Below are positions 9,982 to 16,409 of a stretch of DNA of 64,000 bases, in pieces. Position 1 is the first letter of the stretch; each line of letters begins with the position of its first letter. The DNA is taken from IMG/VR virus record IMGVR_UViG_3300045999_002371, positions 1 to 64,000 of that record, one strand, 5' to 3'. Source of the DNA: a virus. The notes below the pieces were generated by a model. That model ran no database searches. It was not told the DNA's origin and was given only the letters and a program-made list of their open reading frames with translations. The position numbers and the translations under genes were made by a program.

Positions 9982-10133
9982 GTACCTACAAAGTAACTTT
10001 CGTATGGACACGATCGATCGAAGTCGAATGCGATTCCGAAGATCAAGCGAATCAACTCGGTGAACTATGGCTATCCGAAGCAGTACCGCAGATAGCCCAT
10101 GACACCGAGTGGGATAGCGAACTCGTTGAGTAA
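9978..10133 (+). CDS. Small hypothetical protein, 51 aa (MSTYKVTFVWTRSIEVECDSEDQA...)
   Basis: Manual translation; ATGA overlap; similar motif to the 8559 ORF. Confidence 0.6.
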   Translation: MSTYKVTFVWTRSIEVECDSEDQANQLGELWLSEAVPQIAHDTEWDSELVE

Positions 10134-10212
10134 CTCTCAGCCCTGATCTGGGGCTATTAGAAGTTACTTCAAGCCCACATAAGCAGATTCCCTAAGCCCA
10201 AAGTCACTATTC

Positions 10213-10248
10213 GCCCCTAGCCCCTGATCGGGCTAGGGGCTATTTTTT
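10213..10248 (+). terminator. Rho-independent terminator
   Basis: GCCCCTAGCCC-N6-GGGCTAGGGGC followed by TATTTTTT. Confidence 0.85.
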
Positions 10249-10257
10249 GCATTCGAA

Positions 10258-10289
10258 GTTACTGGTGAGTAACATTACTCATCAGTAAC
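10258..10289. promoter_or_regulatory. Tandem 16-bp palindromic operator-like sites (RTTACT-N4-AGTAAC x2) upstream of the recombinase
   Basis: GTTACTGGTGAGTAAC followed by ATTACTCATCAGTAAC; the pair is also a 15-bp inverted repeat with 1 mismatch. Confidence 0.6.
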
Positions 10290-10306
10290 ATGAAGGGGGG
10301 AAGATC

Positions 10307-11569
10307 ATGGCTTATGTCGTAAAGCGTGGAGATAGGTTTACAGGCTATTACCGAAAGGGCGGAAAACGCCTTTCAGCAGGTACATGGGGCTCGGAGATCG
10401 ATGCCATGTATCACGCCTCAAAAGCAGAGGCATCGGGCGTTAGCGAGCCTTCTAGGGCTGTATTTACCCTATCGACCTACATCGATTCATGGTTGCCGAC
10501 CGCCGATCTCATGCCGATCACTCGCAAGGGCTATCGGTCAGTCCTTGATCGCTATGTCCTGCCCACTCTCGGAGATCGCAAAGTAACTTCGATCGATAGA
10601 CGGGCGATTCAAGAGTTACTTCAAGGGCTCAGGGGTCAGGGGATAGGTTCAGCCACCCTGAATCAGATCAAGGCATCGCTAGGGTCTGCCCTCTCCCAGT
10701 TAGTCGATACAGGAGAATTAACTCAGAACCCTACTCATGGGATTCGTATTAAGGCGAAACAGTTAGACATCTCGAATGTCGTAGAGCCCGAAGAGTTTAA
10801 GGCGATCATTCAGCACCTACCGACCGAAGGGGCTCAGTTATTCGCCCGATTCTTAGTCGCATCAGGTTGCCGATTCGGGGAAGCCACCGAGATCAGGGTC
10901 AAAGACATCAACCTAAAGACAGGCGAAGTCTATGTCCAAAGGCGAGTCAGCGATCTAGGGTCAAGCCATACCAGCAGGTTTCTAGTCGTAGAAGCCACAA
11001 AGTCGGGTCATAAGCGAAGCCTTATGTTAAGCAAAGCCTTACTACAAGAGATTCAGGGCTATGTCATAGCAAAAGCCCTATCAAAAGATGACCTGTTGTT
11101 CCCAAGAACGATCATCTTAACAACAGGTAAACTAAAGACTTCTCGTGGAGAAATGTCTAAGCGACCATTCGCCCAAGACGGAAAACTGTTCCAGCATGGA
11201 ACTCTGTACGCCTATACACATGGGCGTTGCCGATGTGAGGCTTGCCGAGAGTCGGTGCGAAAGCACAGGCAAAAGGCAAAGCCATACCAAAAGCGACAGG
11301 GATTCATCGACCATACGAGCCACCTACCACGAGATGTATGGAGAACTACATGGAACAAGGCAATAGCCAAGTCAGGCATCGGGTGGAGTCCTAGAACCCA
11401 TGATCTCAGACACGCTAACGCTACCCAACTTCTAAAAAGTGGGGTAGATGTGCATGAGGTCAAGGAACGCTTAGGACATCAGTCGATAAAGACGACAGAG
11501 CGATACCTACATCGCCTTCGTCACAACCAGTCAAAGGCATCAGAAAGTGTCAATGACTTTTTGGAGTGA
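10307..11569 (+). CDS. int: Tyrosine recombinase/integrase with a zinc-finger-like insertion
   Basis: SAM-like N-domain; catalytic R (SGCRFGE), K (TKS), HxxR (HDLRH), H (LGH), Y (TTERY); insertion HGTLYAYTHGRCRCEAC. Confidence 0.92.
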   Translation: MAYVVKRGDRFTGYYRKGGKRLSAGTWGSEIDAMYHASKAEASGVSEPSRAVFTLSTYIDSWLPTADLMPITRKGYRSVLDRYVLPTLGDRKVTSIDRRAIQELLQGLRGQGIGSATLNQIKASLGSALSQLVDTGELTQNPTHGIRIKAKQLDISNVVEPEEFKAIIQHLPTEGAQLFARFLVASGCRFGEATEIRVKDINLKTGEVYVQRRVSDLGSSHTSRFLVVEATKSGHKRSLMLSKALLQEIQGYVIAKALSKDDLLFPRTIILTTGKLKTSRGEMSKRPFAQDGKLFQHGTLYAYTHGRCRCEACRESVRKHRQKAKPYQKRQGFIDHTSHLPRDVWRTTWNKAIAKSGIGWSPRTHDLRHANATQLLKSGVDVHEVKERLGHQSIKTTERYLHRLRHNQSKASESVNDFLE

Positions 11570-12147
11570 TGATGAAACTAACACGAAGAGGCAAGATCGT
11601 ATTCGGATCGCTATTTACGGCGATCTTCGTAGCAAGTGGGGTAGTGGTACTGCCACCAGCCTTCTCGCCTACGAAAGCCGAAGCACAGATCGAGCAGAAG
11701 CAATACCAAAAGCGATACCAAGAGCGAGCCCTAGCCAAGTACGAGAACGCACACAGACTAACTAAGACAGAGTTAGTCAACCTGCTTCACGCAGTTGGCT
11801 TCGAAGGGCAAGCCTTACGCTATGCGTGGGCTATCGCTATGAAGGAATCAAGAGGAAACCCTCTCTCCCACAACGGCAATCGAGAGACAGGGGATAACTC
11901 ATTCGGGTTATTCCAAGTCAACATGATTGATTCATTGGGACAAGATCGTAGGGACAAGTTCAGTTTGGAGTACAACGCCCAACTGTTGAATCCTGTGGTC
12001 AATGCTCAGATTGCTTATCACATGAGCAATCAAGGCAAGAACTGGAGAGCATGGAAAGGTGTCAACAACTCAGTAGTCAAAGAGTGGTTGAAGCAGTTCC
12101 CTGAGTCTCGTGCTAAAGCACTAGCAAAAGGAAAAGCAACAGAGTAA
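11566..12147 (+). CDS. Membrane-anchored/secreted lytic transglycosylase (lysozyme-like fold)
   Basis: LTRRG plus N-terminal TM helix; catalytic AMKES motif, GLFQVN, LLNPVVNAQIA, W..W. Confidence 0.85.
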   Translation: MMMKLTRRGKIVFGSLFTAIFVASGVVVLPPAFSPTKAEAQIEQKQYQKRYQERALAKYENAHRLTKTELVNLLHAVGFEGQALRYAWAIAMKESRGNPLSHNGNRETGDNSFGLFQVNMIDSLGQDRRDKFSLEYNAQLLNPVVNAQIAYHMSNQGKNWRAWKGVNNSVVKEWLKQFPESRAKALAKGKATE

Positions 12148-12158
12148 GCAATAGGAGA

Positions 12159-12187
12159 AGCCCCGTCAGAAATGGCGGGGCTATCTT
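12159..12187 (+). terminator. Hairpin/terminator with GAAA loop
   Basis: AGCCCCGTCA-GAAA-TGGCGGGGCT. Confidence 0.65.
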
Positions 12188-12238
12188 CGAAGTAACTCTA
12201 CCTGGCAGCCAGGTGAGTTAGTTAGTTAGGGGGCGAAC

Positions 12239-12655
12239 ATGGCAAGTGGCGGTATGCAGGACTGGCAGTCAATGAGCCATAGCAAAGCAAAGCCATACCA
12301 GAAGCCATACCAGAAGCAAGAGCAGTTCCCAAAGGAATACCACAAGGACAAGCAGTGGGTTCAAGACGAACTGCCCTTTACCGATAAGCCTTGGCGTGAG
12401 AGATCTCTTACTGATACTGAAGTAGAAGAACTCTTTTGGCGCGATTTAGTTCAGTTAGGCTGGAAGTTTCAAGCCTATGGAGAGAACCCAAGAAGCAGGA
12501 ACATTGTGTTGCCTTGCCCATACTGTGAGTTAGTTATTGATAGCCACACCATCATCACAGAGTCAAATGCCAAGAAGATGAAAGACAAGTATTACTGCGA
12601 GCAGATCCTTAGAAAGCACAAGGGTCTTGAATGCAAAGCCATACTAGAAGACTAA
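12239..12655 (+). CDS. Hypothetical protein (CPYC motif; KPYQ repeats arise from the DNA repeat)
   Basis: AGGGGG RBS; ORF track. Confidence 0.6.
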   Translation: MASGGMQDWQSMSHSKAKPYQKPYQKQEQFPKEYHKDKQWVQDELPFTDKPWRERSLTDTEVEELFWRDLVQLGWKFQAYGENPRSRNIVLPCPYCELVIDSHTIITESNAKKMKDKYYCEQILRKHKGLECKAILED

Positions 12656-12704
12656 GCAATAGCAAAAGCCCTACCAAAAGGCAGGGCTTCCGCTTTGTAT
12701 TGCT
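12655..12704. terminator. Hairpin between convergent transcription blocks (probable bidirectional terminator)
   Basis: AAGCCCT..CC-AAAA-GG..AGGGCTT, extended by AGCAATA/TATTGCT. Confidence 0.65.
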
Positions 12705-12707
12705 AGA

Positions 12708-14744
12708 TTACTTAGGTTGATTGTCTGTAATTAGTTTTACTTCGCAAGCATCAGTTGTGCAGTAAGCCTCACCAATAGCATCAGCAGCCATTCCTGCATA
12801 GACACCAGAGAAGTCAATAGGGAACAGTTGCATTACGCCCTGCTCTTCGTACTCCTTCTCAGTGATCTGTGTGTATGGCATCTGAGGATAGACATGGTTA
12901 CCACTAGGCAAGAATGAAACAGTCTTAAGTTGACCATCGTACATATGCAAAGCCGTACCAATAGCCGAGGCTTCCTTCTCTGGATCAAATGAGATCGTTA
13001 CAGAGACAGAGTTATCTGACCAATAGCGTTGAGCAGTAGCAGCAAGTGCCATCTTCTCGTAGATACTTACATCCTTCTCACTTCGCTTTGCATCAGACTT
13101 GATAGGGAAGAAGACAACGGAAGTCGTATCAGGAGACTCACTTGCTGGTTCTACTCTGTAGTTAGCAAGTTTGAATAGTGGAAGCATTGGATCGTTGTTT
13201 GAGAAACGAATTGCACGATTGAAGTACTGACCACCTACAGTCCAGTGAACTCCTGGAGATTCTCCAGCAAGGATCGAAACTGTTCCTGATGGCTTAACTG
13301 TTGTCATCTTGATTGACTCACGGATACCAAGCCACTCTGAGTAGTTGGTGTCGTATGACTTGATGACTTTGTAGCCTTCATCCATCCATTGACGCAGGAC
13401 TGGAAGTCCCTTGTTGTCTGCAAAGTTTGCAACACCAGAGACTGATGTACCGATGCGACGATTGCGTTGCATGATTGCGTTGGTCTCTTCCCAGTGAGTT
13501 GGAAGAAGTGTCACAGTCTTTGCGTAGAGATAGGCGAACTTCAATGTGCGCTTGAAATCTTCAAGGTCTGTGTGACGATTGAGATAGGTCTCTACCAATG
13601 TGCAGCACTCGTAGGACTCTAGTGATTGCTCAGCACATGGGTTATACCCTGCAATACGCCAGTCCTTGTTGTTGATTGGATCAGCAAGGCGACCATATTG
13701 CTTGGAGATGTCCATCCAAATAACTCCTGGCTCTCCATTGCGAGCAATACCTTCGATGATCCCATCAAGGTTATCGCCCACGTTGACAGCCACAGAGTTG
13801 TTAGACATCCAGCCATGAGTCATACGCTCTGGATACTTCTCGTAGTTCTTTAGGTTCAAGAACTCTTCATCATCGATGCGACCGATCAATAGTTCTGCAG
13901 AGCGACGGACGTTGCCAGATACAACGCATACACCGATCATGTTGCCGATGTCTGCGATGTCACGACGAGTCAACTTCTGACCAGCACGATCCTTGAATAG
14001 GTCATGGATGTACTGGTGCATCTTGATTAGCGGGTCTGCTCCTGCTGCTGTGCCACCGAAGGTGCGGATTGGTTCGCCTGCTGGACGGATCGCTTCGTAA
14101 TTAAATATTGGAGTCTTCGTATCTGGCTTGAGGTAGGCATTGATGAGGGTGGCTGTTGATTCAACCCAACCCTCTCTGGTGTCTGGGATGTCATAGGCGT
14201 ATTCTCCTTGTGGTGCATAGATGATGAACTCTTTGTCTGCTCCCTTGTCATCAAAGCCCACACCGACTCCGAGCATTGATGCCTCCATGAGGAATGCGAA
14301 AGGCTTTGCTGGATCTGTCTTGACCATCGATCCAGTTGAGACGAAGGCACAGTTCTGCAACGCTGCAGAGTTGCGATGCTCATTGACTAGTGGGGTTCCC
14401 ATAACCCATAGACCTCGTCCAGGTGGTGTCCACTTCAAGTTCCATAAGCGATCGAATGCTTCTTTGGCTGAGGCTGCTGCCTTTGCATCTGACCATGGCA
14501 AACGGTTTGTCTTTGCGTGATCCTTCTGTAATGAGTACATGCCGTTGATGACTCGTTCACATACATCAACCCATGTCTCCTTCGTACCATCTGCCTTGAG
14601 GCGAGAATAGGTACGCAAGAAAGTAATCTCTCCCACTGAGTTGCCCGCTGCATCTTGATAACCGAACGGCGCTTTCTTTGAGCGATACGGTCCAATGAAA
14701 TCCTCAGTCAGTTTGAAAGATAATGTTGTCATAACCCCTACCAT
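12708..14744 (-). CDS. nrdJ: Class II (adenosylcobalamin-dependent) ribonucleotide reductase
   Basis: RTYSR, PPGRGLW, ALQNCAF, GNVRRSA, NPCAEQ, TVKPSGT, C-terminal CTTDAC. Confidence 0.95.
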   Translation of the reverse strand: MVGVMTTLSFKLTEDFIGPYRSKKAPFGYQDAAGNSVGEITFLRTYSRLKADGTKETWVDVCERVINGMYSLQKDHAKTNRLPWSDAKAAASAKEAFDRLWNLKWTPPGRGLWVMGTPLVNEHRNSAALQNCAFVSTGSMVKTDPAKPFAFLMEASMLGVGVGFDDKGADKEFIIYAPQGEYAYDIPDTREGWVESTATLINAYLKPDTKTPIFNYEAIRPAGEPIRTFGGTAAGADPLIKMHQYIHDLFKDRAGQKLTRRDIADIGNMIGVCVVSGNVRRSAELLIGRIDDEEFLNLKNYEKYPERMTHGWMSNNSVAVNVGDNLDGIIEGIARNGEPGVIWMDISKQYGRLADPINNKDWRIAGYNPCAEQSLESYECCTLVETYLNRHTDLEDFKRTLKFAYLYAKTVTLLPTHWEETNAIMQRNRRIGTSVSGVANFADNKGLPVLRQWMDEGYKVIKSYDTNYSEWLGIRESIKMTTVKPSGTVSILAGESPGVHWTVGGQYFNRAIRFSNNDPMLPLFKLANYRVEPASESPDTTSVVFFPIKSDAKRSEKDVSIYEKMALAATAQRYWSDNSVSVTISFDPEKEASAIGTALHMYDGQLKTVSFLPSGNHVYPQMPYTQITEKEYEEQGVMQLFPIDFSGVYAGMAADAIGEAYCTTDACEVKLITDNQPK

Positions 14745-14903: not shown

Positions 14904-16409
14904 TTAATCTTCGATTGATTCGGAGATAATCTTTGTAACTGTATCTTCTCGGAGAGCCTCTGGCAACTCACGCAGTGCCTGAGCACGATCTCCGAAGATG
15001 GCAGAGAGAACTCCACCAGAGGATTGACGGCTGGCTGTGATCTGAATGAACTCTTTATTCTGATCCATGTCGTTGACATTGCCCACTAACTTCAGGAGGC
15101 GATCAATCTCTTGAGATAGATTTGGATCTGCGTATCCGCCATTCATTTCCTCAGCAAAACGCATAAAAGCAACTCTTTGCCCCTGCATTTCGATAATTGC
15201 AGTCAGTAATGACTTGAGTTGATCCTTGGTCTTTACCTCTACTGGAAGATTAAATGCACAAGTATTTTGCGGCTTGAACGCTGGGCAGTTAGATGCAACG
15301 AAGCAGGTATCGCATTGACGCAGGGATGTTTGTTGTGTCTGAACGACAGGGACATCCATCAGAACATCTTTGCCATCATCGTCAGTCTCAACAATAGTCT
15401 TCATCTTGAACCCGAAGACAGGCAAGTTTGTCATCTCTTCAGGGGCTCTTTCTACTGCTCCACTGCGCTCCACTTTCCTCCCTTCCACTCCACTGTTATC
15501 AGAAGCGGATAGATCTAATCCCATCAACCCCGTCATCAACTCTTCTCTATTATCAGATAAGTTCTTGTCATTACCGCCCTCGATAATGTGGAAGTTGGGT
15601 GATTTCTTGTCCATGGATTCCTCTAATTTCTTGTATGACCAGACCGCTACTCTAGTGGCTTCAAGGGTACTATCTTTGACAAACTCCGAATAGTCTAGCC
15701 CAGCCTTGTCTACGATGTTCTTGTAGCGAGGTCGTGCCTGATCCTTCATCTTCTTCGGGTAACGCACTAGTCGTGCCCCATCCCAGATGATCGTCTCACC
15801 TCTACGCATGGGCGATAGCCATGACAATGTGCTGGCTGTGACAAATGGTATGGATCTTAGGTTGTCTGGCTTGGCACATCCAAGGGCGTGATAGTTTACC
15901 TTGAACTGGTTGGAGTAGGTCCGTGTCAGAGCGGCCAAGTTAGTTACTGACTCGATCTCGTCATTAGGTATAGCCACATTGTGGAAGTTTCTTGACATCT
16001 CTGCCAACTTACTCTGTCCATACTCTTGATGCCAGATGACCCATAGTTTAGGGTCGTTACTGAAAAAGGAACGCTGTTGCTCTATCCATTCAAGGCCGAG
16101 TACTTGTGAGTCAAACTCTAGGAATCCTTCAGCGCGATCTGCATTGTTGACAAGGAACTCTTGGTAGTCAGCGGCCAAGTCAATTAGTTCCTGACGAGAC
16201 AGTCCAGCCTTGTCAGCCTGTGATGCCCCTGACTCGATGTAGACCTTAGTCTCTGGATCGAAGTGCTCGCTGATAAGCCAGACCTTGGTCTTAGGCAAGC
16301 CACGCTTACGAAGACCCCAAAAGTTGAGTCCCATCGACTCAACCTTTTGACCTTCTAGCAGGGTGCGGTTAGAGCCAACTTCTACCCCTGAGAAGATAAG
16401 TTTAGTCAT
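14904..16409 (-). CDS. Degenerate TGT/DpdA-like TIM-barrel fused to a C-terminal Cys-rich (CxxC-x5-C-x8-C) helical domain
   Basis: IESGA, FLEFD, VIWH, YHALG, PF..ASTLSW...RRG resemble the DSGA/ELD/PVWH/HGLG/DSTSW..RYG pattern of phage TGT-like proteins. Confidence 0.5.
   Translation of the reverse strand: MTKLIFSGVEVGSNRTLLEGQKVESMGLNFWGLRKRGLPKTKVWLISEHFDPETKVYIESGASQADKAGLSRQELIDLAADYQEFLVNNADRAEGFLEFDSQVLGLEWIEQQRSFFSNDPKLWVIWHQEYGQSKLAEMSRNFHNVAIPNDEIESVTNLAALTRTYSNQFKVNYHALGCAKPDNLRSIPFVTASTLSWLSPMRRGETIIWDGARLVRYPKKMKDQARPRYKNIVDKAGLDYSEFVKDSTLEATRVAVWSYKKLEESMDKKSPNFHIIEGGNDKNLSDNREELMTGLMGLDLSASDNSGVEGRKVERSGAVERAPEEMTNLPVFGFKMKTIVETDDDGKDVLMDVPVVQTQQTSLRQCDTCFVASNCPAFKPQNTCAFNLPVEVKTKDQLKSLLTAIIEMQGQRVAFMRFAEEMNGGYADPNLSQEIDRLLKLVGNVNDMDQNKEFIQITASRQSSGGVLSAIFGDRAQALRELPEALREDTVTKIISESIED

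Follow-up and report, generated by a model that had tools for sequence, protein, structure and literature searches.

What kind of information is carried by a short word that is written again and again, on one strand, through several overlapping and convergent genes? This question is raised by the first 64 kb (the window hereafter) of the 76,311-bp viral metagenome record IMGVR_UViG_3300045999_002371, in which an array of such words extends from a tyrosine integrase gene (int) to the genes that follow it. The results described below show that the array is a real and conserved signal on the DNA that is under selection. As to the protein that reads it, our preferred interpretation, to which we assign a probability of roughly 0.3, is that the copies serve, with a single polarity, as arm-type sites of the integrase (Int), whose near-invariant N-terminus is predicted to fold like an AP2 or arm-binding domain.

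All 14 words listed in an earlier, sequence-only reading of this DNA (the original prediction) were found at their coordinates as 15-mers. The consensus AAGCCATACCAAAAG, with up to two mismatches allowed, gave 11 matches, all on the plus strand between 10963 and 12950, and one more in the rest of the 76.3-kb record. The pattern AAGCNNTASCA occurs 14 times in the window as compared with 1.01 ± 0.93 expected, a count reached by none of 100 shuffled sequences, and ten of these matches lie inside the array on the plus strand (10963–12960). A profile derived from the listed copies, which involves circularity at those copies though not in the remaining genome, detected 17–18 copies of at least 12 bits within 10963–12965 and almost none elsewhere, and Tandem Repeats Finder reported three arrays of period 12, at 11698, 12123 and 12290. 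The original prediction had described at least 15 copies, on the plus strand only, with a 12-bp tandem period, and in these respects it was confirmed. It had also placed the array at 10963–12680, across three genes; the start and the genes stand, whereas the end does not, because the array runs on into the 3′ end of a fourth, convergent gene, nrdJ. The genes concerned and the copies that they carry are as follows.

10307–11569, plus strand: int, tyrosine integrase of 420 aa (Pfam Phage_integrase and SAM_3; AlphaFold2 model)
11566–12147, plus strand: exported lysozyme-like protein (SLT_3) with a signal or membrane segment; the repeat encodes the linker behind this segment and the C-terminal tail
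12239–12655, plus strand: orf138, a variable cassette without a known family, missing from many array-bearing relatives
12708–14744, minus strand: nrdJ, class II ribonucleotide reductase, the final gene of the minus-strand block, convergent with the int operon
10963–10977, plus strand: copy in int, offset 656 (mod 3 = 2), peptide SSHTS
11034–11087, plus strand: three copies in int, at 11034, 11061 (weak) and 11073; offsets 727 and 766 (mod 3 = 1), peptides SKALLQE and AKALSKD
11279–11293, plus strand: copy in the linker of Int, read in the frame of the gene (offset 972), peptide KPYQK
11698–11724, plus strand: tandem pair of copies with a 12-nucleotide period in the SLT gene
12116–12160, plus strand: copies at 12116 and 12146, spanning the SLT stop codon
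12274–12346, plus strand: five copies (12274, 12290, 12302, 12314 and 12332) in the N-terminal part of orf138
12636–12680, plus strand: three copies (12636, 12654 and 12666) at the end of orf138 and in the spacer
12764–12779, plus strand: weak copy (11.8 bits), antisense in the 3′ end of nrdJ
12950–12965, plus strand: strong copy (15.2 bits), antisense in nrdJ, 240 nucleotides beyond the junction

The copies in int begin at offsets 656, 727, 766 and 972 from the start codon, and thus all three frames are used; those at 12146, 12654 and 12666 lie at or past stop codons, outside open reading frames. Both points agree with what had been noticed at the outset. Alignment of 295 distinct copies from 32 representative relatives showed that the full word is 16 nucleotides long (AAGC-MA-TASCAR-AAGC), that its flanks carry a weaker AAGC signal every 6 nucleotides, that, counting from 0, A0, A1, G2 and A7 are invariant and that position 8 is divided about evenly between C and G. 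Of the gaps between adjacent copies that do not exceed 60 nucleotides, three quarters are multiples of 6. Within the window, every AAGC-to-AAGC gap divisible by 3 is also divisible by 6 (14 of 14), and hence the lattice is not codon periodicity. The density of AAGC is 18.1 per kb in 10900–12720 as compared with 2–4 per kb elsewhere, and the complement GCTT is at background.

A codon alignment of int from 32 representatives (62–100% nucleotide identity) was used to determine normalised synonymous entropy, which was 0.40 at the motif codons versus 0.66 elsewhere (permutation p = 0.001). At the 11034 and 11073 copies, which overlap or directly follow predicted helix 243–255 in a conserved part of the catalytic domain, the synonymous sites are nearly fixed, in that the AAA-GCC-CTA codons are kept while nearby Leu codons vary freely. 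The antisense copy at 12950 coincides with the most synonymously constrained 6-codon window of the 178 windows in the last 220 nrdJ codons (0.17 versus a mean of 0.63), and the residues encoded there are not conserved in a solved, distant NrdJ. The weak copy at 12764 showed moderate constraint (rank 25 of the 178).

The array is present in about 140 related loci, and every examined relative that carries this int (Int identity 44–100%) has it, with slight drift of the word. In 80 IMG/VR loci with 61–100% Int identity, the gene order (Xis-like)-int-SLT-(variable genes)-nrdJ-dpdA is shared by all, and the copies cluster on the plus strand only, beginning about 650 nucleotides into int. A further 59 loci (Int identity 44–57%) keep the synteny; in some of them the word is unchanged and forms up to eleven tandem units in int, and in others it has drifted slightly, to AAGCCTTAGC. 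A clade that appeared to be array-poor actually carries this drifted word, which is under-scored by the profile. The number of copies per relative is 7–21 in most clades, and in both complete relatives (95–97 kb) the array is the only such cluster in the genome. A uniform scatter of profile matches, or the lack of an array at the equivalent place in relatives, had been named as observations that would overturn the prediction; the matches are non-uniform, and the array is at the equivalent place.

The reading of the word by the ribosome changes among these relatives. The int linker site (11279) holds 1–11 tandem units, which are read as KPYQK or KAKAIAEA depending on the lineage. The SLT C-terminus is a repeat tract whose stop codon is provided by the repeat's own TAG at lineage-specific places, and one clade has about 100 nucleotides of repeat in non-coding DNA with stops in all frames. 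The constraint, the frame switching, and the non-coding and antisense copies favour a position-dependent signal at the DNA level, and the C/G swap at position 8 would fit the read-out of a base pair better than that of a single RNA base. The proposal that selection acts on the nucleic acid was supported by the synonymous-site test suggested for it, both in int and at the 12950 window of nrdJ.

The position of the copies with respect to the convergent junction was determined by aligning 25 representatives on the first minus-strand stop codon. Copy density was zero from −6000 to −2200 and climbed to 2.5 per 200 bp immediately ahead of the junction; past it, the density was 0.2–1.0 copies per 200 bp over 600 nucleotides and then about zero, with opposite-strand matches near zero throughout. 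The array accordingly spans from about −2000 to +600, with its maximum at the junction.

The junction itself is subject to turnover. Relatives L015 (4150–6760), L037, L045 and L047 have one to three additional minus-strand genes between nrdJ and the junction, and in L015 and L045 two copies are antisense in the new junction-proximal gene of 93 aa. The SLT–nrdJ spacing ranges from 0.1 to 3 kb among relatives, which indicates a hot spot of gene gain and loss. The nrdJ alleles are mosaic among relatives, and this confounds a test of whether the nrdJ copies decay where nrdJ is displaced from the junction.

Some of the copies contribute to the transcription terminators T1 and T2, which are listed here in order together with T0.

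10213–10240: T0, strong terminator upstream of the int promoter-like region
12160–12181: T1, hairpin and intrinsic terminator, with a stem maintained by compensatory changes in relatives
12666–12689: T2, imperfect 10-bp inverted repeat centred on AAAA; a copy of the word forms the left arm

On the minus strand, T2 has a T-rich tail that is the complement of two copies, and T2 is therefore read as the nrdJ terminator; on the plus strand its T-tract is poor. Intrinsic termination accounts for T1, T2 and the 3–4 copies that form their A/T tracts, as in bidirectional terminators, and leaves the remaining copies unexplained. T2 was also considered as a perfect dyad of two repeat copies at the junction, and this was rejected, given that the dyad is imperfect, that the right arm has G at the invariant A of the word and that several clades lack T2. 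A separate, long hairpin (12186–12232) occupies the gap between T1 and orf138 (AAGTAACT...CCTGG-CAG-CCAGG...AGTTAGTT). Relatives share the stem and differ in loop length, and the hairpin is possibly a translational or processing element.

Which protein, then, might read the array? In our preferred interpretation the words, at least 17 of them, asymmetric, 12–16 bp long and on the same strand, would be binding sites of a sequence-specific double-strand DNA-binding protein, spaced in steps of 6 bp at the places that the overlapping genes permit. The reader would most likely be the AP2-like N-terminal arm-binding domain of the integrase that is encoded under the array. The copies would be the arm-type sites of an attP of unusual extent, or would form a zone in which Int is loaded, and many Int molecules would thereby be kept beside a putative crossover site near the junction. 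We infer that Int binds the word and that recombination takes place at the array. The AlphaFold2 model of Int has N-terminal strands at residues 3–7, 10–17 and 20–27 followed by a helix at 30–43, with a predicted local distance difference test score of 85–90, and its best whole-chain matches among solved structures (PDB) are full-length lambda Int. When folded alone, the N-terminal domain kept the same topology, the three-stranded sheet plus helix of an arm-binding domain as far as the predicted fold goes, and was superposed on the AP2/ERF domain 2gcc (Z 4.6, root-mean-square deviation 1.9 Å over 44 residues, 25% identity). The AP2-type fold is that of the arm-binding domains of lambda and Tn916 integrases. 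Residues 1–27 of Int are almost invariant while the whole protein drops to 61% identity, which fits a conserved DNA target. Because of this predicted fold, recombinase arm sites appear to be the most consistent of the functions that the original prediction had listed, whereas two others, injection stop and terminal-repeat processing, found no support.

Several observations weigh against the assignment to Int. Arm-type sites flank a core in which inverted core-type sites surround a 6–8 bp overlap shared with a host attB. Here, the search for a crossover core that matches an attB gave none; T2 is an imperfect dyad at the junction, but it is missing from several clades and reads as a terminator as well. 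No integrated copy was detected in 185,579 species-representative genomes searched with a single Int and with an Int alignment. A Pfam search of Int matched no arm-binding family, and the Z score of the N-domain match is low, as is expected given its 45 residues. Arm-type sites usually number about 2–7 within a few hundred bp (5 in about 240 bp in lambda and 7 in about 410 bp in L5), as compared with the 17–18 copies at 10963–12965; we know of no described attP that approaches at least 17 copies in one orientation over about 2.5 kb. Finally, the N-domain might actually recognise a second repeat family, AGTAAC/GTTACT, which is more reminiscent of a classical att or operator region.

The AGTAAC/GTTACT family comprises eight copies, in both orientations, at 9992–10620 around the int promoter, where about 0.3 would be expected in 630 bp. 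Two perfect or near-perfect GTTACT-N4-AGTAAC palindromes are located at 10258–10289, just past T0, where they are preceded by a −35-like TTGCAT and followed by the int ribosome-binding site; such dyads are conserved, with 2–3 per relative. The set probably serves the int promoter as operators, or else marks the genuine att region. Just before T0, at 10202–10210, is AGTCACTAT, which is identical to the lambda arm-type consensus. This single copy is conserved as (T)AGTCACTATG in most relatives. It was set aside, for the sequence is not enriched: the window has two exact copies and 23 matches at up to one mismatch versus 18 expected. No tRNA-like fragment or look-alike of an attP core was found, and an Rfam search at E ≤ 1 gave two sub-threshold chance matches only.

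If Int is not the reader, the reader may be a host protein or a phage protein encoded elsewhere. The product of orf138 is ruled out by the absence of its gene from many array-bearing relatives. An HTH_17 Xis-like protein is unlikely to be a universal reader, since its gene was undetected by tblastn and among the upstream open reading frames listed in a distant, array-rich clade.

Int and SLT have further features of note. An insert of about 70 aa in Int (residues ~268–338, 11108–11320), between the catalytic Lys and HxxR, contains an invariant H-G-T...G-C-R-C-x2-C motif; its only family match is a weak one to zf-dskA_traR (E 0.0085), and AlphaFold2 gives two short strands plus a helix. The lowest synonymous entropy of int (0.13–0.15) is at codons ~283–296 (11150–11200), and the inverted repeat GTTCCA-GCA-TGGAAC at 11188–11202 constitutes a second nucleotide-level element in int that is unrelated to the repeat word. 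Codons 137–153 of SLT (11975–12030) also have very low synonymous entropy, with several values of about zero, and do not contain the word.

One could envision several other roles for the array. The copies might be a polar protein roadblock, at which a monomeric, asymmetric binder halts RNA polymerase or the replication fork travelling one way and so insulates a plus-strand island of about 12 kb from the 83-kb minus-strand block; this layout is seen in complete relative G3, where the island lies inside an otherwise minus-strand genome. The single orientation of all copies, the density that is highest in the 200 bp before the junction and declines on both sides, and the peak of cumulative GC skew at the junction would be explained in this way, although the skew is confounded with transcription direction. 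Actinophages offer a precedent in their stoperators, asymmetric 13-mers with an orientation that matters (PMC9283540), but stoperators are intergenic and genome-wide whereas the array copies are local and mostly intragenic. Moreover, the roadblock lacks a candidate binder. The four stray AAGCNNTASCA copies outside the array in the window are all sense-oriented; this apparent genome-wide bias was dropped when it was not reproduced in G3, and the scattered copies there, without orientation bias relative to transcription, also argue against a roadblock. We regard this explanation as unlikely, though not to be dismissed. Action at the RNA level is doubtful and ranks below it: the AAG/TAG triplets (NAG), conserved at 6-nucleotide spacing in the int-operon mRNA, would wrap a ring-shaped or multimeric RNA-binding protein, or serve as stability or translation signals. 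The operon copies are all in the sense strand and their lattice resembles TRAP-type sites, and the poor plus-strand T-tract of T2 could permit read-through antisense to nrdJ. An RNA signal is possible only if plus-strand transcripts pass T2, however, because the strongest constraint at the nrdJ end is at the antisense 12950 copy, 240 nucleotides past T2. The tolerance of a C/G swap at position 8 and the lack of an Rfam match are also unfavourable, as is the fact that TRAP is, to our knowledge, not known in Actinobacteria. A Rho utilization (rut) site, which would be rich in C and poor in G, is disfavoured by the base composition of 10900–12720 (C 0.23, G 0.25) and by the invariant G at position 2. 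Combining elements of the roadblock and of Int binding, the array might be an orientation-dependent barrier or loading zone of a new kind in phage, read by the Int AP2-like domain or another monomeric binder, a proposal to which we give less credence than to the RNA-level explanation. Transcription or replication arriving from one side would be stopped, and a 12-kb lysogeny or accessory island would be insulated from the 83-kb lytic block. The DNA code, overprinted on four genes, would have given rise to the protein tails, and to a stop codon as well, as mere side effects.

The explanations that remain are improbable. Replication slippage in a low-complexity tract might have produced the repeats, which would be kept as useful or harmless tails rich in Lys, Ala, Pro and Gln, and indeed copy number shifts in steps of 6 or 12 nucleotides and the KAKA and KPYQK tails and linkers are low-confidence parts of the Int model. 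This cannot be easily reconciled with isolated copies in conserved, partly helical parts of Int (helix 243–255 and the residues that follow) with fixed synonymous sites, with the copies in non-coding DNA and antisense in nrdJ, with the lineage-dependent frame at the same site or with persistence to 44% Int identity. Slightly lower in our estimation is a replication origin with iterons, or a partition centromere. Both have precedents, as TubR/tubC has same-orientation tandem repeats with a 12-bp period and the lambda origin has iterons inside a coding gene. However, the array does not lie next to an initiator gene, the genes for helicase and polymerase are 16–24 kb away, the spacer after T2 is short, and the junction is a maximum of the skew rather than a minimum; as for partition, the record and both complete relatives gave no match to ParA (AAA_31) or ParB_N, and the record itself none to RHH_1, in searches that did not include TubZ and ParM. 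The least probable role is that of a packaging, terminal-repeat or injection-stop signal, the idea that had been named first in the original prediction. The two complete relatives (95.5 and 97.4 kb) are circular assemblies that pass through the array, with end overlaps of 123 and 127 bp elsewhere. In the source run, contig depth is flat at about 122–137 on both sides of the array, without a two-fold step, and Logan contigs of four runs showed no consistent joint, loose end or molecule end within it. The start of the record is an assembly break and no genome end, for the genome of a relative extends about 20 kb further. These observations all come from contigs rather than raw reads.

The source phage, whose record has a CheckV completeness of 76%, is contractile-tailed and encodes a sheath, a baseplate, a DNA polymerase and a helicase, and all of the runs that hold the stretch well are freshwater or lake metagenomes. 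The order at the end of the plus-strand island is T0, the promoter-like region with two palindromes, int, the SLT_3 gene, orf138 and the convergent nrdJ. Beyond nrdJ, on the minus strand (14904–16409), is a gene for a 501-aa protein that matches phrog_887 "queuine tRNA-ribosyltransferase" (E 2e-58); a gene of this type is syntenic with nrdJ in all relatives, and the match makes its product a DpdA-like candidate for 7-deazaguanine modification of the phage DNA. A blastn search of 10300–12720 against 50,697 phage records for cultured relatives gave no match, and the closest cultured integrases have 24% identity.

The array represents a natural case of a cis-acting DNA code laid over coding sequence, in three frames and antisense to a fourth gene, that fixes synonymous sites, writes protein linkers and tails and sets a stop codon. 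New with respect to what had been noticed before are the spacing of the words on a 6-nucleotide lattice, the density profile centred on the junction, the constraint on an antisense copy in nrdJ, the switching of frames and the setting of stop codons, the AP2-like fold predicted for the N-domain and the AGTAAC family. The array also marks a very abundant, uncultured family of 95–100 kb freshwater phages that are lytic-looking yet carry an intact lambda-type integrase. If Int reads the array, then the array would indicate where and how these phages recombine, and hence whether they lysogenise their hosts; if another protein does, it would provide a handle on a polar DNA–protein system. In either case the triple repeat at 12290–12325 is a short, defined probe for pull-down or binding assays.

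How does the array compare with known systems? The Sal-box/TTF-I and Fob1/Tus-type barriers are alike in having multiple protein sites of one orientation where a transcription unit ends and traffic arrives from the opposite direction. Sal-box/TTF-I and Fob1 are barriers of rDNA. These systems are eukaryotic or chromosomal, whereas the array belongs to a phage and is known here from sequence. Cluster A mycobacteriophages have stoperators, numerous asymmetric 13-mers whose orientation is tied to transcription (PMC9283540). The immunity repressor reads these sites, which are distributed genome-wide in the small gaps between genes, whereas the array occupies one 2.5-kb zone, lies mostly within genes and enters the opposing gene, with two copies antisense in nrdJ. 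The X1–X2 sites of lambda Xis and the P2 cox boxes are likewise tandem, same-orientation sites near int, on which a protein filament is built; they consist of 3–6 sites with a period of about 10–11 bp, fewer than in the array, and the Xis-like gene was undetected in the distant, array-rich clade. The closest parallels are with the P and P′ arms of lambda and the P1–P7 sites of L5, which are asymmetric, about 10–12 bp long, multi-copy and near int, on both sides of the junction, and whose integrases have an extra N-terminal beta-sheet DNA-binding domain that Int resembles in its predicted fold. The lambda and L5 arms hold 5–7 sites over 0.25–0.4 kb, whereas the array presents at least 17 putative arm sites over about 2.5 kb, in a single orientation and mostly within coding sequence.

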